Source: an uncultured Bacteroidales bacterium
GTDB taxonomy: Bacteria; Bacteroidota; Bacteroidia; Bacteroidales; UBA3824
Length of the DNA stretch: 56,698 nt
Assembly: GCA_946409405.1 (NCBI GenBank)
Contig: CAMJWL010000002.1
Coordinates: 1 to 56,698 of the forward strand
Direction of reading: 5' to 3'
Shown: positions 2,347 through 15,953 of the stretch, piece after piece
Position numbering within the stretch: the first letter of the stretch is position 1
Layout of the letters: each line of letters opens with the position of its first letter
Translations under genes and position numbers: made by a program
Notes under the pieces: generated by a model
Told to the model about the DNA's origin: nothing
Seen by the model: only the letters and a program-made list of their open reading frames with translations
The model's database searches: none

Positions 2347-2419
2347 GATGCTTGGTTTCTAATACTGGTTTGCTTACTATCAACGATTGATGCTGACTAT
2401 CTTTGTGTTACAAAAAAAA

Positions 2420-2800
2420 CTAAATCGAGTACGGAACCTGCTCAAAAGGCACGTCAACGATGTCGGAATACTCCTCGCCGGCCTCCTCCATGTCCTCGTC
2501 GTCGTCGGGGTAGTGCCACTTAACGAGTACGTCGTGTCCGTCGTTGTGGATGTCCTCGAGTTTGAGCAATACGTCGAGAAGCAACTTAGACGATGCCGTG
2601 TTGAAGTATTCGAGCTTGAAATTGAAGACGGTCTTGTCGAGGGGGTCGTTCTTGTACTCGTCAAGCCATTCGAGAATAGGCTTGTAGAACACAACGACAT
2701 CCTCGGGCAGCGAACGTCCCGAAATCTCGAAGATGTTGTTTTCCTTGTCCAAAGTAACTGTGGGGGTATCGTCTGTACCCTGTATTTTTATAACTGACAT
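2420..2800 (-). CDS. DUF1987 / SiaC-family small regulatory (phospho)protein
   Basis: 126 aa. FEISGRSLPEDVVVFYKPILEWLDEY...FKLEYFNTASSKLLLDVL fits the DUF1987 (SiaC) layout as I remember it, including an FNT-SS-type motif. Lies 12 nt downstream of the SiaB-like gene. Confidence 0.75.
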   Translation of the reverse strand: MSVIKIQGTDDTPTVTLDKENNIFEISGRSLPEDVVVFYKPILEWLDEYKNDPLDKTVFNFKLEYFNTASSKLLLDVLLKLEDIHNDGHDVLVKWHYPDDDEDMEEAGEEYSDIVDVPFEQVPYSI

Positions 2801-2812
2801 AATTATGTAGAT

Positions 2813-3391
2813 TTATTCTTTTATACGTGAAATAGTTGATGTTAAAACGAAGAACGAATTGACACTGTCAATCGTCAGGAAGCTGTATAGCAACTTCTGT
2901 CCGGTCTTACGAGCGATGTCGATAAAACCGAGTCCCGCGCCTCCACGGTCGGAAATGCTTCCTTCCCGCATCTGCTGCTTGTAGAGTTTGTTGAGTCCGT
3001 CCTTGTCTTGCTTATTGACGTTCTCGAGAATCGACCGCAACTTTTCGACGTTGGCGTTCTTGATGATGTTGCCGGTGGTGACGTTGTATTCCGTCGCCGC
3101 CTTCGACACCATAAAAATGCCCCTGCCGTCCTTCGCCGATTCGTTGGCATTACCTTCGGAGTGCTTGCTTATGTTCTGTAGGCATTCCACCATGACGTGG
3201 AACACCTTTTTCTGAACGGAGCTTGGGTCCTCCTCTCGCGCCATATTGGTCTCGGCGAGGGAGGTAAACGCCTTCGTTATCTGGTGCGTTATCTCTCCTT
3301 CGTAAGCCAAATTGATGTTGTTACGCTTCATCTTGACGTAGAAGTCATAAACAAAATCAAGCGACTCTTTATGTTCTTTTGTGTTCGCCAT
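2813..3391 (-). CDS. SiaB-family protein kinase (HATPase-like anti-sigma-kinase fold)
   Basis: 192 aa. C-terminal SISDRGGAGLGFIDIARKTG ATP-lid-like motif. Size and position between a PP2C and a DUF1987 gene match the SiaA-SiaB-SiaC order. Confidence 0.7.
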   Translation of the reverse strand: MANTKEHKESLDFVYDFYVKMKRNNINLAYEGEITHQITKAFTSLAETNMAREEDPSSVQKKVFHVMVECLQNISKHSEGNANESAKDGRGIFMVSKAATEYNVTTGNIIKNANVEKLRSILENVNKQDKDGLNKLYKQQMREGSISDRGGAGLGFIDIARKTGQKLLYSFLTIDSVNSFFVLTSTISRIKE

Positions 3392-3426
3392 AATATTATT
3401 CGTGTTGTATATTATGATACATTCTT

Positions 3427-6075
3427 TTAAAACTCTATACCAATGAGCAAGATGTCGTCCACCTGCTTGTAACTGCCCTTAAACTCCAGGAAGTCCTTCT
3501 CAAACAAATCCCTGTACTGCGGCATCGTGAGTTCCGGATTGTTCTCGATGAGTTCCTTGATGCGCCCAGGACGGTATTTGCGACCGTCTTCGCCGCCTAT
3601 CTGGTCGGGAAGACCGTCTGAGAAGAAGAAACATTTTTCACCGGGCTTGAAGTTGATTTCGTAGTCCTCAAACTTCTTCTCCTCCCTGCCTTTGCGCGGC
3701 GGCTTGCCACCGATGGCCTGCGCCGTGCCTTTGTACTGCAAGAGTTCGCGCTGCGAGTTGAGATAGTACAGAGGCCTGTGTGCGCCCGAAAAGTGAAGTA
3801 TGCCTTTCTCGAAGTTTATTTTACATAAAGCAATATCCATGCCATCCCTTGCCTCCTGTTCCTCGCTGTCTTGTTTTAATGTCTTGCGGACACCAAGATG
3901 GAGTTGGTCGAGCACCTGCCCCGCATGGAGCGCGTCGGCGTGGTCGGCTATGATATTGAGGTTGAAATATCCAATGAACGAGAGCAACGCGCCCGGCACA
4001 CCGTGGCCAGTACAATCGACCGCCGCAATATATACGTTGTCGTCTTTCTCGAAGAACCACGGGAAGTCGCCGCTTACCACGTCCCTCGGCCGGTAAAACA
4101 TGAAGAACTTGGGCAGACGTACCGTAATGGCGTCGAGACTCGGTATAATCGCCGACTGGATTCGCTGCGCGTAGTTGATGGACTCGGTGATAGACTTGTT
4201 CTTTTCCTCGATTTCCATCTCGATGCGCTTGCGCTCGGTGATGTCGTGCGCCACAAAGAGGACCGTTTCGAGTTCCTTCTCCTTGTTGAACTCCGGGATG
4301 GCGTTAAACTGGATGATCATGTCCTCGCCGTCTTCGCCCACATTCGGGAAGGTGGTCTCGGTGTCGAACATGCGCTGGTTTTGAACCACCTGATCCAAAG
4401 CGTCCTTGAAGAAGGCGCGGATTACGTCGTTGAGTTTTACCTCGTCTATCTGCTTGGATACAATCTGGTCTTTTTTGAGTCCCACAATCATCTGTCCCAC
4501 GGGGTTCACATAGAAGAACTTGCCGTCGGGACTCAGGCGCAGGATGGCGTCGAGAGAGTTCTCCGACAATGCCTGCATCTCACCAGACATGCGCTGCGCC
4601 TTCTCTGCAATCTTGCGCACGGTGATGTCGCGGGTGTTGAAGATAATGCCCTGTATTGCCGCATTGCTGAGGAGGTTGCGGCCTGTTGCCTCGAGCCACA
4701 GAGTCTCCGTATCCGACTTCTTGAACTGGTACTCGAATGTAACCGGCGTCTCGGGGTGAGCAAGCAACTGTTTGAACACTTCGTGGAACTTGTGACGGGA
4801 GTTTTCGTCGAACTTCTCGATGGCACTCTTGCCCACAATGTAATCAGGCTCGTAGCCCAAGATGCTCTTGGACGACGGGCTTTCGTATGTAACGAGGGCG
4901 TTTTCGTCGTAGATGGAGATGACCTCAGATGCGTTTTCGAGAAGGGCGTACTGACGTTTCTGACCACGCTCCACCTCGCGAATCTGAGCCTCCAATTTCT
5001 TGTTGGTGTCTTGAAGTTCGAGTTGTGCCTTCTGCATCGCCTCGGCGTTCTTGCGAAGTTCCTCCTCGTTTTTCTGCAACTGCTTGGTCATTTCCTGGGC
5101 GTCGCGGAGGAGTTTCTCTGTCTGGGTGTTCACCTTCAAGTTGAAGATGGTCTGCGCGATAATCTCGCTCACCTCCTTCACAAGGTTGAGGGTCTTGTTT
5201 GGCAGGTCGGGCAGCAAGGACGCAAACTCGATGACACCCTGCAACTTCTCGTCGCTGATGAGGGGCGAGAGCAACAGGGTCTGCGGCTTCTGGTCGCCAA
5301 GGATGCCAGAACTGATGGTTACATAGTCGGCGGGAATTTCCTTGCGGTAAATAATGTCGCGCTCGAAGGCAGCCTGTCCCACAAGCCCGACGCCTATCTG
5401 AAATTCCTGGGTAACGTATTTTTTGCGGTTGTAGGCATACGTGGCGATGTTGACGAGGGTCTTCTTGTCCTCGTCGTATAGGTAGAACGCGCCTTGCACC
5501 GCGTTGATAAATTCTATGATGTTGATGATGGTCTCGTATGCGAGGTCGTTGATGCTATTGCGCTGACGGAGGATGTCGCCCACAATTTCCTTGCCTTTTG
5601 CAATCCACGCTTGCTCCGCCTCACGCTGCGATGTCGCCACAAGGTTGTTTTTCATTATAAGCAACGAACTACCGAGGAGGTCGTTCTGGTCGATTTCGCT
5701 GTTGTCGAAGTAGAGGTCGCCTTCACCAATTCGCTTGGCGATCATGGAGTTTTTGCGGAAGATTTCGTTTTTCTCGTCGAGCATCTTCTCCAGTTCCTCG
5801 TTCTGACGGCGGTTGCGACGCGCAAAATAATTGAAAATAATTCCAATTACAATAGGCGCGAGGTCTATGATATAGAGCAACGGCGAGCGATCGTGGATGT
5901 AAAGGAGTTTGGATAACGAAAACTGGATGTGCTTCATCTGAAACTCCGCAAGTATCGCCACGACAGGGAACAGCATACCGATAGCAATGCCTACCATGGT
6001 GTAAATCAGCACCATGTGGGGATTGCTTGCAATCCTGTCTTCTTTGATTGATATGTCAGTTTCCTGTGTTGCCAT
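3427..6075 (-). CDS. Membrane-anchored GAF-PAS-PAS PP2C (SpoIIE-type) Ser/Thr phosphatase, SiaA-like
   Basis: 882 aa. Two N-terminal TM helices; a GAF module (QGAFYLYDEDKK...GVGLVGQAAFERD...SSGILGDQKPQTLLLSPL); a coiled coil; two PAS-like blocks. C-terminal SGDFPWF..AAVDCTGHGVPGALLS..DGMDIAL..FSDGLPDQ motifs are typical of SpoIIE/PP2C. Confidence 0.85.
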   Translation of the reverse strand: MATQETDISIKEDRIASNPHMVLIYTMVGIAIGMLFPVVAILAEFQMKHIQFSLSKLLYIHDRSPLLYIIDLAPIVIGIIFNYFARRNRRQNEELEKMLDEKNEIFRKNSMIAKRIGEGDLYFDNSEIDQNDLLGSSLLIMKNNLVATSQREAEQAWIAKGKEIVGDILRQRNSINDLAYETIINIIEFINAVQGAFYLYDEDKKTLVNIATYAYNRKKYVTQEFQIGVGLVGQAAFERDIIYRKEIPADYVTISSGILGDQKPQTLLLSPLISDEKLQGVIEFASLLPDLPNKTLNLVKEVSEIIAQTIFNLKVNTQTEKLLRDAQEMTKQLQKNEEELRKNAEAMQKAQLELQDTNKKLEAQIREVERGQKRQYALLENASEVISIYDENALVTYESPSSKSILGYEPDYIVGKSAIEKFDENSRHKFHEVFKQLLAHPETPVTFEYQFKKSDTETLWLEATGRNLLSNAAIQGIIFNTRDITVRKIAEKAQRMSGEMQALSENSLDAILRLSPDGKFFYVNPVGQMIVGLKKDQIVSKQIDEVKLNDVIRAFFKDALDQVVQNQRMFDTETTFPNVGEDGEDMIIQFNAIPEFNKEKELETVLFVAHDITERKRIEMEIEEKNKSITESINYAQRIQSAIIPSLDAITVRLPKFFMFYRPRDVVSGDFPWFFEKDDNVYIAAVDCTGHGVPGALLSFIGYFNLNIIADHADALHAGQVLDQLHLGVRKTLKQDSEEQEARDGMDIALCKINFEKGILHFSGAHRPLYYLNSQRELLQYKGTAQAIGGKPPRKGREEKKFEDYEINFKPGEKCFFFSDGLPDQIGGEDGRKYRPGRIKELIENNPELTMPQYRDLFEKDFLEFKGSYKQVDDILLIGIEF

Positions 6076-6144
6076 TTTAGTCGTTAAAATCGGTTGCTAA
6101 ATTACAGAATTTTACACGGAAAATAAAATTTTCGGCGATTTTTT

Positions 6145-8724
6145 TTATTTGTCCCAACTTTTCAGCCAATTTCTGTACCTCTGGTCCAATGACGAAAGCG
6201 TTCCATCACTCTCCGCAAGGCTGTTAACTTTCTCAATCTCAGTGAGTTTTGATTTAAGATCGCTTTCACTGTGCTGAGCGGTCTTGAGCCTGTCGTGCAA
6301 ATCTTGATTTTGCGCCTTCATTATCTCCACCTGCTTCATCGCCTGCTCCTCTATCTCCTTATGTACGGTGATGTCGAATGCGGTGTAAAGCACTTTGAAC
6401 ACCTTGCCGTCGGTATCCCTTACCGGCGTGTATTGGTTGATAAGCCAAATGTCGTTGCCAGTGAGTTTGGACTTACGTTTTACAGTCATCTGGTGCATAT
6501 TACCTTCGCAAACATTTTGCCACAATGCCTTAAATTCCATGATTTCTTCGTCAGGAATGAAGGTCAAAATGTTTTTGCCCTTGGTCTGCTCGTAGTCGTA
6601 CCCCATGGTCTTGATGTGTTTTGCGTTGGCAAACAGCAAGTTGCCTTCCACGGAATACTCCGCCCGCATCATGGTCTCGTCTATGGCGGTAAGCACCGAG
6701 GTCATCTCGATACGGTTTTTTGCCATGCTTTCCTGCGTGGCTTGCAGCATTTCGGCGCGCTCCTGCTCCACGGCGAGGAGTTGCTTGTTTTTTTCCTCGA
6801 TGTTTTTCTGCTCGGTGATGTCGTTGGCTATGTAGAGGACGCGCACCACATTGCTCTTCTGGTCAAAAATCGGCGTGTACTGCGAGATAAGCCAGATATT
6901 GTCGCCATTTTTGCTCTTCTGGTTGACAATCTTCTGGTACGACTGTCCGGCGCAGATGTTTTGCCATACAATGTCAAAATTGTCCAAGTACTCATCGGAA
7001 AGGATACTCCTGATATTTCTGCCGATAAGCTCGTCTTTGCGGTATCCAAGCGCAGAGAGGTATTTCTGGTTGGCGGATTCAAACTTACCTTCGGGATCCA
7101 ACTCGGCTTTGAGAAGGGTCTCATCGACGGCGGAAAGAATACCCGACATCTCCGCCTCGCGTCGCTGCGATTCGTCGCGGGCGGTGGTCATCTCCGCCAT
7201 CGCCTTGTGGAGTTCCTGCTCGCGGACGGCAAGTTCGTCTGACTTTTTCTGCGATTCCTGGAGGAGTTCGGCGGTACGGGCGTTGTTGCGCAACGAGGAG
7301 AGCGTGGAGGCTATGGAGTCGCCAAGTTTTTCCACAAACTGGATTTCGTGCGGTTTCAAAAGGTTGAGCGACGCCAATTCTATAACGCCAAGTATGGTGT
7401 CTTCCGATTTGAGCGGCACCATCAATAGGCATTTTGGACGCGAGTCTCCAAGACCCGATTCTATCGCCATGTAGTCTGGCGGAACGTCTGTAATATATAA
7501 GGTGTTCTTCTCCAACGCGCACACGCCCACAAGACCGTCGCCGAGGGGGATGCGCTTGGTAAGGAATTTTTTGCGGTCGTATGCAAATGCCGACAGCATT
7601 TCGAGGTAGATGTGGTTTGCGTCGGAATCGTCCAATATAAACAGACCGCCCTGACTCGCATTTATATAATGTACGAGGTTTTTGATTACTTCGTCGGAAA
7701 GGGTGGTGATGTTTTCGTTGAAATGGCGCATGATGTCGCCAAATTTAGCCAGACCCTGCGTAGTCCAGTTGCGCTGCTCGTCTTCGAGACGGCGTTTTTT
7801 CTCTTCGCTCTGCGTGGTTGACAGGCGGTTGCGGAGTTCGATAAGGCTCTTTGCCATGGAACCTTCCACAGCCTCCACGCCTACTTCCGAATCGTATTCG
7901 CCCTGAGCAATCTTGTGCGAAAACTCGGTAAGTCGCTTGAAGTTGGATGCGGTTTCGTTGATGCGGTGATTAAGTAGGCCAAACTCAGTCTTGTCTTCGT
8001 CGAGCCTGTAATCCGGCACGATGCCGCGCATGAGCAATGATATGAAATTGTCTGCCTTGATGAAGCCCGCCTTCATGTAGCGGAACACAAAGAGACCTAT
8101 CATCATTATCAGCAATATCAATGGCACCGACAATGCCGCTACCACAATGCCGTGGTGCTGTATCTCGTCCCTTATCTTCTGGTCGCCAGCAATGAGATTG
8201 TTGCGGTGCGCCATGTACATCTGATTGAGGGTCTTGCGTATCTGTTCAAACGCGCTTATCTCCTTGACACCGAGCAACTCACGCGCCGACTCCACTCGCC
8301 CGTTGATGATAAGGCGCATGATGTCTTTGTTGACGTTCTGGTAGATCACAAACTCGTTTTTGAATTTGTCTAAAATCCTGAGTTCTTCCGCCGACTGCAA
8401 TGTGGCTTCGTAGTCTTTGAGGCGCACTTCGTAGAATTGGTTGAACTTATTGTGGTGCCTCTGGATGGTAACAACGTCGGTCTCGCTCTCGATGATGGCA
8501 TGATTCTGCACCACGAGAGTATAGATGTCTTCGGAAAGGGCGTACAACGGGTATATACTCGTAGCCTGATGCCCGGTGAACGCCTCCACATCGCTCCTTA
8601 TCTTGCCGACCGAGTACAACGAGTATATGCAATAAAATAAGGCATAAGCCGCTACCATCGTAAACAACAGTATCAACTTATTCCGAAAGTCCATTTTGTC
8701 AAATATTTGGTTCACAGTTCCCAT
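6145..8724 (-). CDS. MCP-like sensor: 4-helix-bundle N-domain, TM, HAMP, GAF, 2x PAS. No recognisable output domain.
   Basis: 859 aa. The N-terminal ~190 aa lie between two TM helices and have a 4HB_MCP-like heptad character. A HAMP-like linker follows (TEFGLLNHRINETASNF), then GAF (QGGLFILDDSD...GDGLVGVCALEKN...ESGLGDSRPKCLLMVPL). Two PAS blocks are each preceded by a Glu/Gln-rich coiled coil. No MA, kinase or GGDEF motif seen. Confidence 0.8.
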   Translation of the reverse strand: MGTVNQIFDKMDFRNKLILLFTMVAAYALFYCIYSLYSVGKIRSDVEAFTGHQATSIYPLYALSEDIYTLVVQNHAIIESETDVVTIQRHHNKFNQFYEVRLKDYEATLQSAEELRILDKFKNEFVIYQNVNKDIMRLIINGRVESARELLGVKEISAFEQIRKTLNQMYMAHRNNLIAGDQKIRDEIQHHGIVVAALSVPLILLIMMIGLFVFRYMKAGFIKADNFISLLMRGIVPDYRLDEDKTEFGLLNHRINETASNFKRLTEFSHKIAQGEYDSEVGVEAVEGSMAKSLIELRNRLSTTQSEEKKRRLEDEQRNWTTQGLAKFGDIMRHFNENITTLSDEVIKNLVHYINASQGGLFILDDSDANHIYLEMLSAFAYDRKKFLTKRIPLGDGLVGVCALEKNTLYITDVPPDYMAIESGLGDSRPKCLLMVPLKSEDTILGVIELASLNLLKPHEIQFVEKLGDSIASTLSSLRNNARTAELLQESQKKSDELAVREQELHKAMAEMTTARDESQRREAEMSGILSAVDETLLKAELDPEGKFESANQKYLSALGYRKDELIGRNIRSILSDEYLDNFDIVWQNICAGQSYQKIVNQKSKNGDNIWLISQYTPIFDQKSNVVRVLYIANDITEQKNIEEKNKQLLAVEQERAEMLQATQESMAKNRIEMTSVLTAIDETMMRAEYSVEGNLLFANAKHIKTMGYDYEQTKGKNILTFIPDEEIMEFKALWQNVCEGNMHQMTVKRKSKLTGNDIWLINQYTPVRDTDGKVFKVLYTAFDITVHKEIEEQAMKQVEIMKAQNQDLHDRLKTAQHSESDLKSKLTEIEKVNSLAESDGTLSSLDQRYRNWLKSWDK

Positions 8725-8756
8725 TTACTTGGACGTTATTATCTTTTTCAAAAATC

Positions 8757-8764
8757 CAAATTTA
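8757..8764 (-). promoter_or_regulatory. Candidate Bacteroidetes -7 box (TAAATTTG on minus strand) for the sensor/partner-switch operon
   Basis: Plus-strand CAAATTTA is the reverse complement of TAnnTTTG. Lies 33 nt upstream of ATG 8724. Confidence 0.45.
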
Positions 8765-8923
8765 GTAACAATTTTTGAATATCGCCACATCATTTTTGCG
8801 TTTTTTGTAAAAAAAAATTGCCCGATGCTGATTATCAGCGCGTTACAAAGGCATATTTTTTTTGTGCAATAATGGCTTTTTCGGAAAAAAATCAAAAAAC
8901 GTGCCTAAAATTCGATTTTATGT

Positions 8924-8968
8924 AACAACCCCGCAACATCGGGGGCGTGCGCCTTGATGTGCGGGGGG
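8924..8968. repeat. REP-like hairpin, third copy of the AACAACCCCGCACATC...GATGTGCGGGG element
   Basis: aacaaccccgcaacatc-gggggcgtgcgcctt-gatgtgcgggg. The arms match the hairpins at 26896-26930 and 47687-47726 but the loop is different and larger. Confidence 0.6.
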
Positions 8969-9074
8969 ATAGGAACACTTGCACTGCGCCTGCAATTCGG
9001 GGCCGAATATAATAAAATTCGCATCCACCCAAAAAATCCCCCCTTTTTTATTTTGCAATCCAAAAAAATAATCA

Positions 9075-9082
9075 TACCTTTG
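9075..9082 (+). promoter_or_regulatory. Candidate -7 box TACCTTTG for the CheR/T9SS-cargo operon
   Basis: TAnnTTTG match 23 nt upstream of ATG 9105. Confidence 0.5.
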
Positions 9083-9104
9083 TATTGTTGTTTCAACATT
9101 GAAA

Positions 9105-9950
9105 ATGGAACTTAGCGAACAAGACATACAGAAGGTGCAAGACACCATCAGGAACGTTTCGTCATACGACTTCTCCGACTATTCCTACAACAGTTTTTGC
9201 CGCAGGATAGAGAAGATACTGCTCGATTATGGCGTGTCGCTCGACGTGTTGCTCAGGGACATCCAGGGCAACTACAACTTCATGGAAAAAGTGGTGCGCG
9301 ACATCACCGTAAACACCACAGAACTATTCCGCGACACCGAAGCATGGCTCAAAATACGCACCCTCCTGGAAACCAAATACGCCGACAAAGAATCGCTATA
9401 CATCTGGCACGCCGGATGCTCGTCGGGGCAGGAAGTATATTCAATGATGATAATGCTCTGCGAAATCGGCATGATAGACAAAGCCTCCATATACGCCACC
9501 GACATCAACGAAAACATGCTCCGTACCGCAATGTCGGGGCAATACAAATACCACGAAGTGCAAGACTACATCGGCAACTTCGACAAAGTGTTCAACCCCA
9601 AAGTACATTCGGAGGCAGTGCCATACGTCGATATGCGCAAATACATAGAAGTAAACAAACAGAAAGACTACGTAAAAATGGAGCGCAGCCTCGTGGAAAA
9701 GCCGCTCTTCTTCAAGCACGACCTCGTGTCGGGCGAACCCATCATCGCCCGCAAACTCGACATAATCCTCTGCCGCAACGTCCTCATATATTTCAACCAC
9801 AACCTGCAAAACAAAGTCCTCAAATTTTTCTACGACAACCTCGCCGACGACGGATGCCTCATCATAGGCCGCCACGAAGGCATGATAGGACACGTGGCTT
9901 CCCTCTACGACAAGAAAGGAACAATCTACTACAAGAGGAGTATAATATAG
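9105..9950 (+). CDS. cheR: CheR-family protein-glutamate O-methyltransferase (stand-alone)
   Basis: The track ORF starts at TTG 9099; ATG 9105 (MELSEQD..) is more likely. The N-terminal helical domain (FSDYSYNSFCRRIEKIL) plus AdoMet-MTase motifs (LYIWHAGCSSGQEVYSMMIML, DIILCRNVLIYF) are typical of CheR. Confidence 0.85.
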   Translation: MELSEQDIQKVQDTIRNVSSYDFSDYSYNSFCRRIEKILLDYGVSLDVLLRDIQGNYNFMEKVVRDITVNTTELFRDTEAWLKIRTLLETKYADKESLYIWHAGCSSGQEVYSMMIMLCEIGMIDKASIYATDINENMLRTAMSGQYKYHEVQDYIGNFDKVFNPKVHSEAVPYVDMRKYIEVNKQKDYVKMERSLVEKPLFFKHDLVSGEPIIARKLDIILCRNVLIYFNHNLQNKVLKFFYDNLADDGCLIIGRHEGMIGHVASLYDKKGTIYYKRSII

Positions 9951-10041
9951 CATTGTTGACAAAAAATAGCAAATTAAACACAAATTGTGGCATTTTTATT
10001 GCTAAAAGTTGCAGTAATAAAACCAACAAAGCACGAAAAAA

Positions 10042-10869
10042 ATGAAAACAATCAGACACATACTCGCCACGGCAGCGGCGGCCGCGTCATTGACGGCGGC
10101 GCAAGCCCAGGTGTCCGCCGACTTCACCGTCTCGCCAGACAAGGCTTGCACGGGCGAAGCCATTACTATCACAATCAAAAACTCTTCCGGAGAATACAAG
10201 ATTGCCAACGTAACCGACTTCGGCGACGGCATAGACACATACGGCAAAGACCTAAAACATATCTACGAAAAGCCAGGCACATACACAATCTCAGTAAGGC
10301 TCCTGCTCAAAGACGACACTTGGACGCAGGCCACCACAAAGACCATCACAATAGGCGAAACGCCCGAACTCACCCTCGAAGACAACGCCGACGCCGCGCT
10401 CATCACCGCCACCACGTCCACAGGAGCGTCGCTCGAATGGATGTGCAACGGCAGCAAAATCAGCAACACAGAAAATACACTCTATTACCTCGAAGGAGGC
10501 ACGTACACCGTTACCGCCTCCAACAACGGATGTGCCGCCACACAGACCTTGAAGGTTACGTACCAAAAACAGGCCGCCAACGACGACACTTATATTAAAG
10601 TAGCCAACAACGTAATCACGCCAGGCAACAAGGACGGTGTCAACGACGTACTATTCATCGAGGACGTGGGCAACTACACCTCGCCATGCTCCGTCAAAAT
10701 ATTCGACAAGAGAGGCCGCATGGTATATTCAAACAACAATTACACCAACACCGACGGGTTCCAGGGGCTCGACGACAACGGCAACGAACTTTTTGCCGGC
10801 ACTTATTACTATGTTATCAAAAGCCAGGGCAAAAAAGGCTGCACGGGCTTTGTCGATTTAATCAGATAA
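10042..10869 (+). CDS. Secreted PKD-domain protein with a T9SS type-B (gliding-motility-associated) C-terminal sorting domain
   Basis: Signal peptide MKTIRHILATAAAAASLTAAQAQ. PKD-like FTVSPDKACTGEAITI..FGDG..HIYEKPGTYTISV. C-terminal NNVITPGNKDGVNDVLFIE..VKIFDKRGRMVYS..FAGTYYYVI..GFVDLIR fits the TIGR04131-type CTD. Confidence 0.85.
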   Translation: MKTIRHILATAAAAASLTAAQAQVSADFTVSPDKACTGEAITITIKNSSGEYKIANVTDFGDGIDTYGKDLKHIYEKPGTYTISVRLLLKDDTWTQATTKTITIGETPELTLEDNADAALITATTSTGASLEWMCNGSKISNTENTLYYLEGGTYTVTASNNGCAATQTLKVTYQKQAANDDTYIKVANNVITPGNKDGVNDVLFIEDVGNYTSPCSVKIFDKRGRMVYSNNNYTNTDGFQGLDDNGNELFAGTYYYVIKSQGKKGCTGFVDLIR

Positions 10870-10882
10870 AACACTTACGATC

Positions 10883-12433
10883 ATGACAAGGAAAATAATC
10901 ACAGCCGCCGCGCTCCTGCTCACCGTCCACACCGCCATGGCGCAGGAGTTGACGCCCGGACAGACCTATATGAACCGCTTTGCCGTAGCACCTGCCTTTG
11001 CGGGCTTCAACGGCAACGACGAAGGATTCCTCGGATACCGCGCCACCATGACGGGCATCGACGGCGCGCCTACACTACTCCGCGCCAACGTCAACGGCAA
11101 CCTCAAAGGCACAATGGGCTACGGCGTGGACATCGCAAACGAAAAGGCGGGCAACTTCAACAACACCATAGCCGCCCTCACATACGCATACCACGTCAGA
11201 CTGAGCAACGACATGAACCTCAGTTTTGCCCTCACGCCCACCATAGTAAGGTCGGCATACGACCTCGCCAAAGCCAAGACATACAGCGCACAGGTGGACC
11301 CCGTGTTCCAAAACGAGGCAGGACTCGCCGGCACGGGCTTCGACGCAGGATTCTCGGTAATGTTCAACGTGCAAGGGCTATACGTGAGCATCAACGCGCC
11401 GCGTCTTATATGCCCCGACCTCAAATTCCAGAACGGCATCGTAAACACCGACCGCGTTATCAACGCAAACGTATCGTATGCCATCGAAGCCGACAAATGG
11501 GAGATAGAACCAGGCGCGGCTGTATGCTACGGCATCAAGGGCGGACTCGACTGGCGGGCATTCGCAACCTTCAAATACGACCGCCGTGCATGGCTGCAAT
11601 TGTCATACGCCTCGCAAAAATGGATGGGCATAGGAGCGGGGTTTGCCGCCACCAACAGGATTGTATTGTGCTACCAGTACGAAGTGGGCATGTCTGACAT
11701 CGCCAAAACCTGCAACGGCAACCACGAAGTTACAGTGGGATTTCTGTTGAACAAGGCCAAGAAATTACAGAAGCCCACCATCTTCATCGACGACAAGCCC
11801 GACTCCAAGCCCGACTCCAAAGCCGAAAGCGGACTTGCCAAGAAGTTGCAAGAAGAAATAAAGGCCCGCACCAACGAAATCAAGCGTCTCGAAGGCATTA
11901 TAGAAGACTGCTGCGCCAACAACAACCCGTCGTCGGACGTCAACAGCCCCAAGCCCTCGGAAGACCCCAACCAGATTACCGACCCAAGCGAGCCAAACCA
12001 GCAGATTGCCGACAACAACGAAATAGAGCAGCCCTCCGACGACAGCGAAGTGGCGCAGCCCCGCGACCCGCACAAAGTGGAATGGCTCACCCCCACCGAA
12101 CTCATCAACGTAAGGTTTGCAACGGGAACCGCCACCATGCTCAAAGCGTCCATGTCGGATCTCGACGCCTTCGCGCTCAAGGTAAAACACGCCAAAAACA
12201 ACGACCGCGACATCCTCATCATCGCCTATACCAACGACCCAACGGCATACGGCAAGCAGATGTCTGAACGCCGCGCCATGGCCATCAAAAAATACCTCAT
12301 CTCCAAAGGCGTACCCGCCAACAGGCTCATTGCAACTGGCATGAGGCTACGCAACATAGCCGAAGACCCCGACGGACGCTACGAAGACAATAGGATAATG
12401 GTAGGCCTCGAAGTTAAGCAGAGAGACAAGTAA
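10883..12433 (+). CDS. PorP/SprF-family T9SS outer-membrane protein fused to a C-terminal OmpA-like peptidoglycan-binding domain
   Basis: N-terminal ~290 aa: signal peptide, then MNRFAVAPAFAGF..., with PorP/SprF beta-barrel character. An acidic/Pro-rich linker follows (KPDSKPDSK...SEDPNQITDPSEPNQQ). The C-terminus RFATGTATM..ILIIAYTND...SERRAMAIKKYLISKGVPANRL is OmpA_C-like. Confidence 0.8.
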   Translation: MTRKIITAAALLLTVHTAMAQELTPGQTYMNRFAVAPAFAGFNGNDEGFLGYRATMTGIDGAPTLLRANVNGNLKGTMGYGVDIANEKAGNFNNTIAALTYAYHVRLSNDMNLSFALTPTIVRSAYDLAKAKTYSAQVDPVFQNEAGLAGTGFDAGFSVMFNVQGLYVSINAPRLICPDLKFQNGIVNTDRVINANVSYAIEADKWEIEPGAAVCYGIKGGLDWRAFATFKYDRRAWLQLSYASQKWMGIGAGFAATNRIVLCYQYEVGMSDIAKTCNGNHEVTVGFLLNKAKKLQKPTIFIDDKPDSKPDSKAESGLAKKLQEEIKARTNEIKRLEGIIEDCCANNNPSSDVNSPKPSEDPNQITDPSEPNQQIADNNEIEQPSDDSEVAQPRDPHKVEWLTPTELINVRFATGTATMLKASMSDLDAFALKVKHAKNNDRDILIIAYTNDPTAYGKQMSERRAMAIKKYLISKGVPANRLIATGMRLRNIAEDPDGRYEDNRIMVGLEVKQRDK

Positions 12434-12458
12434 TTAACCCCAAAAAACGACACCCAAA

Positions 12459-12944
12459 ATGACCAGGCAAATACTCAAATACCTGATGGCAGGCATATTG
12501 ACCGCCGCCACCACGGGCATTGCGGCGGCGCAGTCCATCAGCCTCGGACACACCACTCCGGCGGCAAGCACTGCGCACGCGGGCGGGCTGTCTTACACTT
12601 ACTCGATAGGGCGGATAGCAAGGATGGTAACTACAACCATCCCCGCCGACTCTCGCGACGGCAATACCAAGGCGGCGTCAAGCACCAAGGCAATAGCCGC
12701 CACCGCATACCCCAACCCATGCACCACCCTACTCCGCGTCAAGGCCGACGAGCCAATATCCGGCACCAACGCCAAGATACAGATAATAGACAGCAAAGGA
12801 GGCGTGGCTGCCACAATGAAAACATCGTCTGCCAGCGACGACGGCGAAATCTCAATAGACATGTCGCACTTCGCACAAGGCAAATACATAATCAAGATAA
12901 CCAACGCTAACGGCACATACACCGCCACAGCAATCAAATTCTGA
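12459..12944 (+). CDS. Small secreted protein consisting almost only of a T9SS type-A C-terminal sorting domain
   Basis: 161 aa. Signal peptide, a ~60-aa low-complexity segment, then AYPNPCTTLLRVKADEPISG..IQIIDSKGG..FAQGKYIIKITNANGTYTATAIKF (Por_Secre_tail pattern). Confidence 0.75.
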   Translation: MTRQILKYLMAGILTAATTGIAAAQSISLGHTTPAASTAHAGGLSYTYSIGRIARMVTTTIPADSRDGNTKAASSTKAIAATAYPNPCTTLLRVKADEPISGTNAKIQIIDSKGGVAATMKTSSASDDGEISIDMSHFAQGKYIIKITNANGTYTATAIKF

Positions 12945-12950
12945 CATATC

Positions 12951-14906
12951 ATGAAAACGAGAATCATAAATACAATAGGCATCCTTGCCCTGGCGGCCTC
13001 CATACACACCGCCACAGCCCAGACCCTGCCAAATACTTTCAGCTACCAGGCCGTGATAACTGCCGAAGACGGCTCCCCGGTAAGCAACCACGACATCACC
13101 GTGGAAGTATCCATACGCCAAGGCGACAACTGCGAGAGCGGCAACTCCTGTCCCGTACTGTGGCAGGAACTCCATGCGCCCAAAACCAACGAATTTGGAA
13201 GTTTCAGCATCGAGATTGGCGACCCAAACGCCATCAGCACCACGGGCGGCTCGCTTGCCAGTTATTCTAAAATAGACTGGCTCGACACCAAAAAAGGCAA
13301 CTATTACATGCAAGTGCGCGTGGACTTTGGCGAGGCATCGTACCTCAACGGCATGACAGACCTCGGCACCACCAAATTCTCGTCTGTGCCATACGCCATC
13401 GCCGCAGTTACCGCCGAATCTGCCAAAGGTCTCGCCAAGGACGAAAACGGCAAAATAGCCAACAAAATAGGCGAACTTCAAGACGTGGACGTCAATTCGC
13501 CCAAGAAAAACCAAATCCTTGTATTTGACGGCACTTCGTGGAAAAACACAGACCCCGCCGCCGCACAAGGCCTTACAAACATCGCCATATCAAACCCCAA
13601 GACCGGCGACATCCTTGTATATAACGAATCCACCGGCAACTGGGAAAACAAGGCGCAAACCGCCCCGTCCCTCGAAAAACTCAGCGACGTAATTCTCGAA
13701 AATCCCACTGTGAACCACGTGCTTGCATACAACCCAGACGAAAAACGATGGTCAAACAAGGCGTTTACCTTCGACATGATCAAAGAAGTGAGCGCATCCG
13801 GCGCAAAAGTGGGCGACGTGCTTACCTTTACCTCAGAAGGCCTTTGGGAAGCACAGGCGGGCGGCAGCGGCGAGGGCGGCGCGTCTGCTTTGAGCGGTCT
13901 CTCCGACGTAAAAATATCATCCGACGTGGACGAGGGACACGTACTCCGCTACTCAGCCACCGACAAAAAATGGAAAAACTCCGCCCCCGGCGCAGACAAC
14001 GTATGGAGGGTGGACTCCAAGCAAACATTTGCATACGCATCTTACAAAAAAATAGGCATCGGCACCAACACCGACAAGGAAGAAAACTACGCCAAAGCCC
14101 AACTCCACATCAAGGACGGCAACAACAACACCCTGTTTAACGCCCGTGGCATCACCATCGGCGCAAGCGAAATAAGGACACAGGCCACCGGTTCAATAGC
14201 ACTTGGCGGCGGCAACGCCAACGACGTGCAGGGCGCAGCCGTAATTGCTGGCACAGGCTCCACTTCTGGCGAACTTGCCAAAAACAGCATTGTAATGGGC
14301 AGCGGCTCTTCTTGCAGCGGCAACGGCGACATCGTGATAGGCGACGAAAGCAAGGCGCAATTCAACAACTGCGCTATATTCGGCAACAACCTGAGCGCAG
14401 GATACGCCAACCAGTTTATATGCGGCAAGTACAACACTTACACCGACCAAACGGCGGTATTCATTGTAGGCAATGGCACATCGAAGACCGATACCAAAAA
14501 CATCTTCACCATCGCCCCAGACGGCACTGTTACCTGCACTGGCGCGATGAACTCTTCCGACGCCCGCCTCAAAACCAACATCAATCCCCTCGCCTACTCA
14601 TTGCAGAACGTACAGAAACTCCGTGGCGTTACCTTCAATTGGAACAAGGCCACCAGCCCCAACGCCTCCGACAAGACCCAGTACGGATTCATCGCCCAGG
14701 AAGTGGAGAAAGTGTTCCCCGACCTCGTTGGCACCGACAGCAACGGCTACAAGACCGTCAACTACGTAGGCGTAATCCCCGTTTTGACCGAAGCAATCAA
14801 GGCGCAGCAAGACGAAATCCAAGAGTTGAAATCCGAGAACGAACAACTCAAATCGACCCTCGAACAACTCCTCAAACGTGTAGAGATGTTGGAAAAGAAC
14901 AAATAA
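12951..14906 (+). CDS. Tail-fibre-like secreted protein with a C-terminal peptidase-S74 intramolecular-chaperone (auto-cleaving) domain
   Basis: 651 aa with a signal peptide. Five Trp-containing repeats (NQILVFDGTSWKN, GDILVYNESTGNWENK, NHVLAYNPDEKRWSNK, GDVLTFTSEGLWEAQ, GHVLRYSATDKKWKNS). A YadA-head-like stretch (GSIALGGGNANDVQGAAVIAGTG..NSIVMGSGS). C-terminal SDARLKTNI...LRGVTFNWN...YGFIAQEVEKVFPDLV...NYVGVIPVLTEAIK plus a coiled coil match the endosialidase-chaperone domain. Confidence 0.85.
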   Translation: MKTRIINTIGILALAASIHTATAQTLPNTFSYQAVITAEDGSPVSNHDITVEVSIRQGDNCESGNSCPVLWQELHAPKTNEFGSFSIEIGDPNAISTTGGSLASYSKIDWLDTKKGNYYMQVRVDFGEASYLNGMTDLGTTKFSSVPYAIAAVTAESAKGLAKDENGKIANKIGELQDVDVNSPKKNQILVFDGTSWKNTDPAAAQGLTNIAISNPKTGDILVYNESTGNWENKAQTAPSLEKLSDVILENPTVNHVLAYNPDEKRWSNKAFTFDMIKEVSASGAKVGDVLTFTSEGLWEAQAGGSGEGGASALSGLSDVKISSDVDEGHVLRYSATDKKWKNSAPGADNVWRVDSKQTFAYASYKKIGIGTNTDKEENYAKAQLHIKDGNNNTLFNARGITIGASEIRTQATGSIALGGGNANDVQGAAVIAGTGSTSGELAKNSIVMGSGSSCSGNGDIVIGDESKAQFNNCAIFGNNLSAGYANQFICGKYNTYTDQTAVFIVGNGTSKTDTKNIFTIAPDGTVTCTGAMNSSDARLKTNINPLAYSLQNVQKLRGVTFNWNKATSPNASDKTQYGFIAQEVEKVFPDLVGTDSNGYKTVNYVGVIPVLTEAIKAQQDEIQELKSENEQLKSTLEQLLKRVEMLEKNK

Positions 14907-14928
14907 ACCACACCTTATAATAATATAG

Positions 14929-15336
14929 ATGGACAACAACTATACAAACAACAACAATAACAACAACACCAATCTGGTACTCGGCATACTATCCGCAGTA
15001 TTCGGTGCGCTGTCGCTGTTCATATTCTGCATCCCGTGGCTCACGTTGATACTTGCGGCTGCGGGACTTGCATGCGGCATCATTGCGTTGATACGCATCA
15101 AGAAGGAAGGCGGACAGTTGACACTGCCAATCATCGGCACCGCAATATCGGGCGTGGCCTTTATTGTGGCAACGGTAATGGTGGTAACGTTTCATATAAC
15201 CATCAACGAACTCGACAACAGATTCGAAGAAATGGAGGGCTTATACAATATCATACGCGATTCTATCGACCAATGGGATTCCAATTTTGACAACCAAACC
15301 CTCCCCGAACCAGACTCGACGTTTTATATTGAGTGA
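14929..15336 (+). CDS. Small membrane protein (DUF4190-like), poly-Asn N-terminus
   Basis: 135 aa. MDNNYTNNNNNNNTN followed by three hydrophobic helices. Last gene of the plus-strand cluster. Its 3' end overlaps the rsmG 3' end convergently by 13 nt. Confidence 0.6.
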   Translation: MDNNYTNNNNNNNTNLVLGILSAVFGALSLFIFCIPWLTLILAAAGLACGIIALIRIKKEGGQLTLPIIGTAISGVAFIVATVMVVTFHITINELDNRFEEMEGLYNIIRDSIDQWDSNFDNQTLPEPDSTFYIE

Positions 15337-15953
15337 GGAATAAGGAATTCTATGACTTTCTTTGTCTCAAAAAAATCCTCCTCAAAAACATCTGGAATAT
15401 TATAGATTTTGCATTTGTTGGCGAAGGGCGCGATTTCGTCTTCAAAGTCGCCGCCTTTGAGATACACTATCCGCGACGGCTGATTTTTGAGAAGGTTGTC
15501 GCGGGTTTGTTTTACAAAATTTGGGAAGGCGGTAACGGCACGGCTCACTATGGTGTCAAAACGCTCCTTATACATATTAGACTTTATCTGTATGCCACGG
15601 GCGTTTTTGAGTCCAAGACGCGCTATCACATCGTTGACCACCGTTATCTTCTTGCCAATAGAATCGATGAGCGTAAACTGTTTGTCGGGGTACATTATCG
15701 CCAACGGAATCCCCGGAAAACCGCCGCCAGTGCCTACGTCGAGGATGTTGTGCGACCCGTCCAAAAGATTAAACTTGGCAATAGCCAACGAGTGCAGGAT
15801 ATGGCGCACAAAGAGTTCCCCGATGTCTGCCCGCGAAATCACATTGATTTTCTCGTTCCATTCGGGATAGAGAGTTTCGAGCATCGCATATCGCTCCGCC
15901 TGTTCCTCGCTAATTTCAGGAAAATATTTTTTCACCTTCACCATCGGTTTCAT
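15324..15953 (-). CDS. rsmG: 16S rRNA (guanine527-N7)-methyltransferase RsmG (GidB)
   Basis: 209 aa. NVISRADIGELFVRHILHSL, ILDVGTGGGFPGIPLAI and FTLIDSIGKK are typical RsmG motifs. Confidence 0.9.
   Translation of the reverse strand: MKPMVKVKKYFPEISEEQAERYAMLETLYPEWNEKINVISRADIGELFVRHILHSLAIAKFNLLDGSHNILDVGTGGGFPGIPLAIMYPDKQFTLIDSIGKKITVVNDVIARLGLKNARGIQIKSNMYKERFDTIVSRAVTAFPNFVKQTRDNLLKNQPSRIVYLKGGDFEDEIAPFANKCKIYNIPDVFEEDFFETKKVIEFLIPHSI

Follow-up and report, generated by a model that had tools for sequence, protein, structure and literature searches.

A four-gene cassette that combines type IX secretion components with a MAT-like fibre in rumen Bacteroidales

Where does a gene unit begin and end when the gene for a chemotaxis-type methyltransferase, CheR, stands directly ahead of genes for type IX secretion system (T9SS) cargo and for a protein that resembles a phage tail fibre? 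This question is raised by contig CAMJWL010000002.1 (assembly GCA_946409405.1), of which positions 1 to 56,698 were analysed as one stretch of 56,698 nucleotides (nt), called the window below. The host is an uncultured Bacteroidales bacterium, known as a metagenome-assembled genome (MAG) from the rumen (3.56 Mb, 300 contigs, 88% complete). Six plus-strand open reading frames (ORFs), at 9099/9105-9950, 10042-10869, 10883-12433, 12459-12944, 12951-14906, and 14929-15336, are separated by gaps of 91, 13, 25, 6, and 22 nt. They encode in turn CheR, a secreted PKD protein with a C-terminal domain (CTD) of type B, a PorP/SprF-OmpA fusion, a small protein with a type-A CTD (the stub), the fibre, and a small poly-Asn protein. 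A first-pass annotation had read them as an apparent operon headed by CheR, facing a divergent sensor/partner-switch operon. The ORF list and profile searches agree with the genes, gaps, and domains that it gave, and domain annotation of the window places the divergent operon where it had been described.

The operon itself has to be drawn differently. Genes 2-5 (10042-14906) are a self-contained and widely conserved cassette, and CheR is a neighbour that belongs with the partner-switch sensor system. The explanation that accounts best for the locus as a whole, and which we regard as fairly probable, is that the cassette has its own sigma-54 promoter and produces a surface fibre that depends on the stub, with CheR outside. 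In the following, the contigs of this genome, the fetched loci, and the families of the order are given with the prefixes C, L, and f, respectively; f1 is the family of the window.

Four genes that stay together

With the fibre as the query, 301 genomes of the order were searched, and from the matches to its N-terminal domain (N-domain) we took 20 loci, which we annotated with hidden Markov models (HMMs) built from the cassette proteins. The complete cassette (PKD/type-B CTD protein, PorP-OmpA fusion, stub, and fibre) is found in the same gene order in 15 of the 20 loci, and the cassette-bearing loci span nine GTDB families, with unrelated genes on their flanks. Such an order, repeated in other genomes between different flanks, rules out a chance juxtaposition of genes 2-5. 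The synteny proposed at first thus extends well beyond close relatives for these four genes, and fails for CheR and the poly-Asn gene; in other words, the conserved unit has four genes, not six.

The divergence of the cassette is seen at several distances. Four close relatives, MAGs from the rumen of yak, sheep, and deer, are collinear with the window through the whole region. Compared with them, the regulatory and housekeeping neighbours are 85-98% identical, and the PKD protein, the fibre, and the stub show 64-71%, 53-62%, and 47-55% identity, respectively. At greater distance (L005/L006 and L009, with a fibre identity of 40-42%), CheR, the sensor operon, and all four genes of the cassette are retained, the genes downstream are entirely different, and there is no poly-Asn gene. 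At L007, where the fibre is 33% identical, the four cassette genes alone are kept, in another neighbourhood without CheR or the sensor. It should be mentioned that in this CheR-less locus a gene for an 800-amino-acid (aa) PD40 plus OmpA protein, which is PorE-like, lies directly after the fibre gene in convergent orientation (L007:10821-13223, minus strand).

The first gene of the cassette (10042-10869, plus strand) encodes a secreted protein of 275 aa, in which a signal peptide is followed by PKD at aa 31-103, by another beta domain, and by the type-B CTD (aa 189-275). It matches PF18911, PF00801, and, over aa 189-271, CHU_C (PF13585; 66.9 bits, cut-off 27); its score against TIGR04131, 32.8 bits, is slightly under the cut-off of 35. 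A porP/sprF-family gene begins 13 nt downstream, and this pairing is kept in all cassette loci. The first-pass annotation had rightly recognized here the established SprB/SprF-type arrangement, in which a porP/sprF-family gene directly follows the gene for a type-B CTD protein; the closest known systems are SprB/SprF of Flavobacterium johnsoniae and PorP-PorE-PG1035 of Porphyromonas gingivalis (PMC9143113, PMC12618676).

The product of the second gene (10883-12433, plus strand) is a single fusion of a PorP/SprF barrel (aa 27-287; PF11751, 141.8 bits; TIGR03519, 143.1 bits, cut-off 90.55) and an OmpA_C-like peptidoglycan-binding domain (aa 411-487; PF00691, 47.3 bits), connected by a linker of about 110 aa that is coiled-coil and acidic/Pro-rich. 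The fusion is conserved in all Bacteroidales cassette loci. It matches T9SS_PorE (NF052230) weakly and over the OmpA part only (24.5 bits, cut-off 600), and is therefore not a PorE orthologue. It has been described that type-B CTD proteins stay bound to a PorP-like protein and that PorE ties PorP to the peptidoglycan, and non-mobile type-B cargo has been proposed to be wall-anchored through PorP-PorE-like complexes (PMC9143113). The cassette likewise associates an OmpA_C-like domain with a PorP-like barrel, and the fusion of the two suggests that the PKD protein is probably a fixed, wall-anchored surface element. The cassette differs from these systems in three respects: what is elsewhere PorP and a separate lipoprotein, PorE, is one polypeptide; the type-B cargo is tiny, with 275 aa and PKD only; and the operon goes on to encode a stub whose CTD is of type A and a fibre that has no CTD. 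The T9SS core is present in this genome, as it is in the known systems, with SprA_N on C189 (88 bits) and the PorU sortase on C3 (1062 bits, cut-off 420), so that processing of a type-A CTD is available for the stub. The genome has four PorP-family genes.

The fibre and its stub

The last gene of the cassette (12951-14906, plus strand) encodes a 651-aa fibre, the only one of its kind in the genome. It consists of a Sec signal (residues 1-24), a beta domain similar to the N-domain of the mosaic adhesive trimer (MAT) fibres (25-160), five hairpin repeats (176-345), a beta-helix (385-530), and an S74 chaperone (536-651; Peptidase_S74, PF13884, 68.7 bits at 536-593), and it has no T9SS CTD. The SDxxxK self-cleavage motif, S536-D537-A-R-L-K541, is at least 90% conserved. 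An AlphaFold2 monomer model (mean pLDDT 75.8) has the same layout, with a beta-rich N-domain at 30-142, the hairpin repeats at 176-345, the beta-helix at 385-530 with a pLDDT above 90, and a helical chaperone at the C-terminus. When the model was compared with the PDB by Foldseek, the S74 part, an intramolecular chaperone auto-processing (ICA) domain, matched the ICA domain of MyRF, the endosialidase chaperone 3gw6, 3gud, and 7dc3, and the N-domain gave generic beta-sandwich noise only. The MAT N-domain is likewise reported to have no homologue in the PDB (PMC10769870).

The fibre resembles the MAT fibres of Bdellovibrio bacteriovorus (S74 subgroup, for example Bd3182; PMC10769870). Both have a signal peptide directly followed by a conserved beta-rich N-domain of about 130 aa, a variable shaft that includes a beta-helix, and a C-terminal S74 domain with SDxxxK. 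The MAT fibres have conserved ends and a mosaic middle (PMC10769870), and the family of the present fibre shows this pattern too: identity is 66-67% in the N-domain and in S74, and 28-42%, with insertions and deletions, in the shaft. The model NF053851 (Bdello_MAT_N) is matched by all 49 of the 49 full-length family members, with a best E-value of 5e-11. The fibre of the window aligns to model positions 5-148 of 162 at 27.5 bits (E 2.2e-6), under the cut-off of 60. By profile comparison, then, its N-domain is homologous to MAT_N and lies outside the curated NF053851 subfamily. The cassette fibre also differs in its host, a non-predatory rumen Bacteroidales bacterium with a T9SS, and in its gene context, a T9SS cassette where a dedicated stub partner accompanies it. 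The N-domain is widespread: searched against 1.84 billion proteins, its profile found 21,083 cluster representatives, in which it always directly follows the signal peptide and whose lengths range from 100 to 3100 aa, and a phylum-level search found it in 82 of 401 genomes.

Could the fibre gene be a remnant of a prophage or a tailocin that landed by chance in a T9SS locus? Residues 340-650 do match tail-fibre PHROGs and distal fibre genes of T4-like phages at 25-28% identity, and a C-terminal beta-helix with a self-cleaving chaperone is also what phage tail fibres and tailspikes have, such as the K1F endosialidase (3gw6) and the T5 fibre. The similarity to phages is limited to this part. The N-domain has no phage match and is unrelated to baseplate adaptors, no phage relatives were found among the other cassette genes or the flanks, and, unlike a tail fibre, the protein is the product of a cellular gene with a Sec signal. 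Its place among T9SS genes is moreover syntenic over the nine families, and its N-domain heads proteins throughout the public data. A prophage origin was rejected on these grounds, and we consider it extremely unlikely.

The gene ahead of the fibre (12459-12944, plus strand) encodes the stub. Its 161 aa comprise a signal peptide that ends AAA|Q, an N-terminal module (N-module) of about 45 aa (aa 25-66, with ...GGLSYTYSIG...), a linker, and a type-A CTD (aa 84-155; Por_Secre_tail, PF18962, 46.6 bits; TIGR04183, 36 bits, cut-off 23). The N-module is conserved in an alignment of 35 stubs. An HMM of this module finds one ORF in the 3.56-Mb genome, the stub at 12459-12944, which adjoins the sole fibre gene. 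The pairing extends to other orders and classes, from which 20 further fibre loci were fetched at the phylum level. A stub of 150-210 aa, made up of a signal peptide, the N-module (...S-x-G-G...S-Y-T-I-G-Q...L-T-Q-G-F-Q-Q-P), and a type-A CTD, lies directly beside the fibre gene and in the same orientation in 14 of the 20, upstream in 13 and downstream in one (L038), and in four other loci the fibre gene is followed by genes for a type-B CTD protein with the same N-module and for a PorP-like protein. In L034 and L045, one stub stands ahead of two tandem fibres, which fits a partner that recognizes a shared N-domain.

These observations suggest, short of proof, that the fibre, which lacks a CTD, is exported or anchored by an adaptor that bears one, and we propose the following steps. 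The PKD protein would be exported by the T9SS via its type-B CTD and held on its cognate PorP/SprF barrel, and the fused OmpA domain would tie this complex to the peptidoglycan, as a single-chain version of PorP plus PorE. The fibre would reach the periplasm by the Sec pathway and trimerise, assisted by the S74 chaperone at its C-terminus, and the chaperone would then cut itself off at Ser536. The N-module of the stub would bind the MAT-like N-domain of the fibre, and the type-A CTD of the stub would contribute the signal for the T9SS and, once processed by PorU, the anchor at the surface. The fibre, having no CTD of its own, would in this way depend on the adjacent stub. In a more general form, the N-module would be a portable adaptor for MAT-like N-domains, with a type-A or type-B CTD supplying the T9SS signal in trans and the CTD-less trimeric fibres being carried out folded and tethered; this is a real possibility, which we put forward tentatively.

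Several points weigh against this reading of the stub. In the genus to which this genome belongs, LTQGFQQP, the latter half of the stub motif, is degenerate. AlphaFold2 gave no support for docking when the stub and the fibre N-domain were modelled as a read-through fusion: the N-module was unstructured (pLDDT 25-35, pTM 0.40) in this monomer test, for which TGA was read as Gly, the alignment held 7 paired and 66 unpaired rows, and the motif was the degenerate one of the genus, so that the result does not speak decisively against the model either. The role given above to the PKD/PorP-OmpA pair relative to the fibre is a proposal. Finally, the MAT fibres of Bdellovibrio reach the surface without a T9SS (PMC10769870), and by this precedent the N-domain may be anchored by another route.

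The last point leads to an alternative in which the fibre is independent of the T9SS, either anchored through its N-domain as in Bdellovibrio or periplasmic or vesicular, and in which the stub and the PKD/PorP-OmpA pair are merely co-regulated cargo. It would account for the failed docking and for the surface exposure of fibres with a homologous N-domain in an organism that has no T9SS. It also agrees with six of the 40 fetched loci, where neither a stub nor a type-B partner was detected near the fibre (L021, L027, L033, L042, L048, and truncated cases). Co-regulation alone would hardly explain why the N-module is one-to-one with the fibre in this genome, and why it tracks the fibre across classes on either type of CTD. 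We therefore hold T9SS independence to be unlikely, and a stub-dependent fibre remains the reading that we follow.

As to the junction of the two genes, the stub and fibre ORFs are in frame, with a single stop codon between them, in 12 loci (L001-L005, L009, L012, L014-L016, L030, and L032; in the window, the site is at 12942-12950). A programmed read-through was considered and rejected as improbable: in other loci the two ORFs overlap out of frame, and a CTD N-terminal to the fibre would make no sense.

The predicted promoter of the cassette and the place of CheR

If the cassette is a unit, from where is it transcribed? A generic sigma-70 promoter and terminator scan gave results not above those of shuffled sequences and is unsuited to Bacteroidetes, and pattern searches for TAnnTTTG and sigma-54 elements were used in its place. 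The 91-nt gap between the CheR and PKD genes holds no TAnnTTTG box. It does hold a sigma-54-type -24/-12 element, TGGCATTTTTATTGCT (9988-10003, plus strand), 38 nt upstream of the ATG of the PKD gene, with one mismatch to the consensus TGGCAC-N5-TTGCW and canonical spacing. Counted from its 5' end, a TGGCAY-N5-TTG(C/T) box lies 47-84 nt upstream of the type-B CTD gene in families f1, f53, f70, and f76, and 149-154 nt upstream of it in f23. It is also present in five loci without CheR (L017-L020 and L022), and in an upstream alignment of 13 loci from four families, including five loci without CheR, the box is the sole invariant block. Matches scoring at least 10/11 number 44 in 1.86 Mb of fetched sequence, and many of these are the cassette promoters themselves. 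At the distant stub-fibre pairs of other orders and classes the box is absent, so that the promoter is specific to the four-gene cassette of the Bacteroidales. No second promoter was detected for the cassette. From the conserved motif, it is thus probable that transcription of the cassette begins at a sigma-54-dependent promoter of its own, the element at 9988-10003.

There is a precedent for such a promoter. The remFG-sprCDBF gliding-adhesin operon of Flavobacterium psychrophilum, whose products include SprB, an adhesin with a type-B CTD, and its PorP-like partner SprF, has a sigma-54 promoter validated by mutagenesis (PMC9723704). Both operons, of type-B CTD and PorP-like genes, have a canonical -24/-12 element ahead of them, and the cassette genome encodes one RpoN (PF04552, on C57) and three strong activators of the bacterial enhancer-binding protein (bEBP) type (PF00158, on C64, C139, and C51). 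The present case differs in that the promoter is predicted only, the organism belongs to a different order, and the cargo is not SprB. Two PorP/SprF-family genes (5457-6311 and 9755-10657) are found 3-7 kb away from the bEBP gene on C64 (12980-13480, minus strand), and the product of this bEBP gene is a candidate regulator of T9SS-linked sigma-54 promoters.

Genome-wide, seven strict boxes are both non-coding and placed 24-42 nt ahead of a start codon, the cassette box included; the other six are at C3:8784, C6:6716, C16:9690, C21:17358, C42:3589, and C53:3973, and three of the proteins downstream of these begin with a signal peptide. We predict from this a small RpoN regulon with an envelope flavour. 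In the window, two strict matches were observed against 0.16 expected. The second (TGGCAYN5TTGCW; 3829-3844, minus strand) lies within the ORF of the SpoIIE phosphatase of the divergent operon, on its coding strand, and may be due to chance or be an internal promoter for DUF6272/SiaC.

CheR has a promoter box of its own. A perfect Bacteroidetes-type -7 box (TAnnTTTG), TACCTTTG, at 9075-9082 (plus strand), 17-23 nt upstream of the CheR start, is the sole TAnnTTTG on the plus strand within 8700-15400, and judged by motif and position it is the predicted promoter of CheR. CheR and the sensor operon adjoin the cassette only in f1 and f23, and the cassette occurs without CheR in f53, f70, f76, f16, f27, and f9. 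At L031, a locus of f17, the cassette has two homologous sensors on its flanks, and a leucine-rich repeat (LRR) protein gene and an arginine-deiminase-like gene take the place of CheR. Conversely, CheR with partner-switch genes exists without the cassette. Its homologues, sampled at 49-57% identity, include two with the full arrangement of CheR and cassette, one whose neighbours are TerB, GidB, sigma, and GT2 genes and which lacks both cassette and switch (L011), and one in a single-strand series CheR-CheR-CheB-GAF-SpoIIE-DUF6272-SiaC-ABC without the cassette (L013).

RNA supports the unit in part. Assembled Logan contigs from five rumen metatranscriptome runs, which are of low depth and strandless, cover the cassette, and the PKD-PorP junction is spanned in two runs; the cassette is therefore transcribed in vivo, with PKD and PorP contiguous. 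The depth is uneven from gene to gene in the bovine runs, as RNA would be, and is lower for CheR than for the cassette in three of the four. In none of the five runs does a contig cover 9867-10028 or cross the CheR-PKD gap, although such contigs cannot disprove read-through from CheR into PKD or from PorP into the stub. Contigs start at 10029 and 10055, downstream of the start site predicted near 10014, and are compatible with a start within the gap. In the stub gene, a contig of run X8 joins 12686 back to 12462 (225 back), and 12687-12941, the part that encodes the type-A CTD, has no contig in any run; both are probably an assembly effect of paralogous CTD sequence.

The first-pass reading, in which CheR and the five downstream genes form one operon and methylation by CheR, fed by the sensor system, governs the display of the fibre, has to be weighed against these results. 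The six genes do lie on the same strand with only 91 nt between CheR and PKD, and, low identity notwithstanding, f1 and f23 both retain CheR followed by the cassette, with the sensor operon pointing the other way. The scan predicts no terminator in the gap ahead of the PKD gene, so that transcription from the CheR promoter may read through into the cassette. Further points go against our own reading as well: the sigma-54 box is a prediction, as is the start near 10014, and the RNA contigs demonstrate the presence of transcripts, not their absence. On the other side stand the six families with the cassette and without CheR, the sigma-54 box kept in CheR-less loci, the promoter box of CheR itself, the homologues that travel with partner-switch genes without the cassette, and the unbridged gap with the lower depth of CheR. 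To these we can add that no methylation consensus of the methyl-accepting chemotaxis protein (MCP) type is found in the sensor, PP2C, DUF6272, SiaC, or ABC proteins nearby. CheR at the head of one operon is, in our judgement, very unlikely, and the cassette with its own promoter is preferred.

What, then, is CheR doing here? It is an S-adenosylmethionine (SAM) methyltransferase (9099-9950, plus strand, starting with TTG at 9099 or ATG at 9105; PF01739, 123.7 bits), whose all-alpha N domain scores 21.2 bits, under the cut-off of 27 (PF03705), and whose 85.5 bits against the equivalog NF007902 fall under the cut-off of 435. The divergent operon (1-8724, minus strand), defined by domain annotation, encodes a 4HB_MCP-GAF-PAS sensor (6145-8724), a PAS/GAF/SpoIIE PP2C phosphatase (3427-6075), DUF6272 (2813-3391), SiaC (2420-2800), and a TerB-headed ATP-binding cassette (ABC) transporter (1-2346), all on the minus strand. 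It resembles SiaABCD of Pseudomonas aeruginosa in having a PP2C (SpoIIE), DUF6272 where the SiaB kinase would stand, and SiaC, and differs from it in that there is no diguanylate cyclase and an ABC exporter comes after the switch. CheR shares the SAM-binding domain of chemotaxis methyltransferases with the CheR/CheB systems; unlike in these, the sensor next to it lacks both an MCP signalling domain and methylation motifs, and no MCPsignal, CheA, CheW, or CheB gene is found in the window. In the genome as a whole there are four CheR, two CheB, and 17 MCP-signal proteins, with the MCPs and CheB on contigs other than that of the window. The closest CheR paralogue, on C90, adjoins a second CheR, CheB, and a GAF sensor, which mirrors L013. 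The divergent PP2C/DUF6272/SiaC operon is the likely functional partner of CheR.

A looser link has also to be considered, in which the cassette is transcribed separately and is nevertheless a regulatory target of CheR, the 4HB sensor, and the PP2C-DUF6272-SiaC switch, for example through an action of the switch on a sigma-54 activator, so that the divergent juxtaposition would be functional. A sigma-54 promoter requires an activator, which must receive a signal, and the juxtaposition with CheR is kept between f1 and f23, whose fibre N-domains are about 40% identical; the two sensors that flank the cassette in f17, without CheR between them, also speak for such a link. Against it, most cassette families have no CheR or sensor neighbour and no bEBP gene is adjacent. 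Adjacency to such a switch is also not rare, since by HMM counts the genome has 16 DUF6272, 17 SiaC, and 52 SpoIIE-domain ORFs, a massive expansion of partner switches, and DUF6272 is found in 138 of the 301 genomes of the order. The switch is more steadily joined to the ABC exporter (L010, L012, L013, L014, and L016) than to the cassette. We find this link rather doubtful, though less so than the other alternatives, and keep to a cassette with CheR as its neighbour.

Some further features of the region should be mentioned. The poly-Asn protein (14929-15336, plus strand) has 135 aa, two hydrophobic segments, and no family match. Its gene is present in L001, L002, and L004 only, and absent in L005, L007, L009, L010, and L012. 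It is possibly co-transcribed with the cassette, but it is a lineage-specific add-on outside the conserved cassette, and its proposed membership in the operon finds no conservation beyond the closest relatives. A GC-rich hairpin (ccccgcaacatcgggggcgtgcgccttgatgtgcgggg) lies at 8924-8968, in the intergenic region between the divergent sensor and CheR, and an Rfam scan of 8500-15600 gave no match at E up to 0.1. In the bovine runs, the RNA depth of DUF6272/SiaC (up to 70) is far above that of the genes upstream of them. The Che-like repertoire of the genome, on C31, C90, and other contigs, is sizeable for this order. On the 358-kb metagenome contig of L013, three tandem PF26696 (PTL_trimer) genes (L013:2230-7129) lie on the opposite strand just upstream of the CheR-CheR-CheB-to-ABC cluster, which is another instance of trimeric fibre-like genes beside such a signalling system.

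What the cassette may mean

The cassette joins three known things: an anchor of type-B CTD, PorP, and PorE-like parts, an S74 fibre of the MAT-like kind, and a promoter of the sigma-54 type seen ahead of sprB/sprF-like genes. As the first-pass annotation had supposed, the cluster has the look of a module for a surface appendage, and its product is most likely a cell-surface fibre. Literature searches turned up no paper that describes the arrangement, the PorP-OmpA fusion, the stub partner, or the CTD-less fibre, in agreement with the first-pass annotation, to which no system of such composition was known. To our knowledge, all described T9SS cargo bears its own C-terminal sorting domain. There is a substantial chance that the cassette hides a new mode of T9SS cargo handling, and a CTD-less fibre beside a minimal CTD-bearing partner makes a secretion or anchoring signal that acts in trans directly testable.

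If the N-module is indeed an adaptor, type IX secretion would have here a mode that could be called split-signal or piggyback, in which either the stub tethers the fibre to anionic lipopolysaccharide (A-LPS) or the tether is a PorP-like barrel. For the MAT fibres, no surface partner of the N-domain is known (PMC10769870). The cassette connects this Bdellovibrio family with Bacteroidota proteins in very large number and offers a candidate class of partners for anchoring the MAT N-domain; the adaptor, if real, would point to the type of partner that anchors the N-domain of a large fibre family, with its 21,083 cluster representatives.

For CheR, the correction of the operon model means that it should be studied together with the partner-switch/ABC-exporter system, and not with the fibre. 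For the bacteria themselves, the cassette is a likely adhesin locus of rumen and gut Bacteroidales that diversifies fast, with 28-42% identity in the shaft against 85-98% in the housekeeping neighbours, and that carries a predicted sigma-54 control point.

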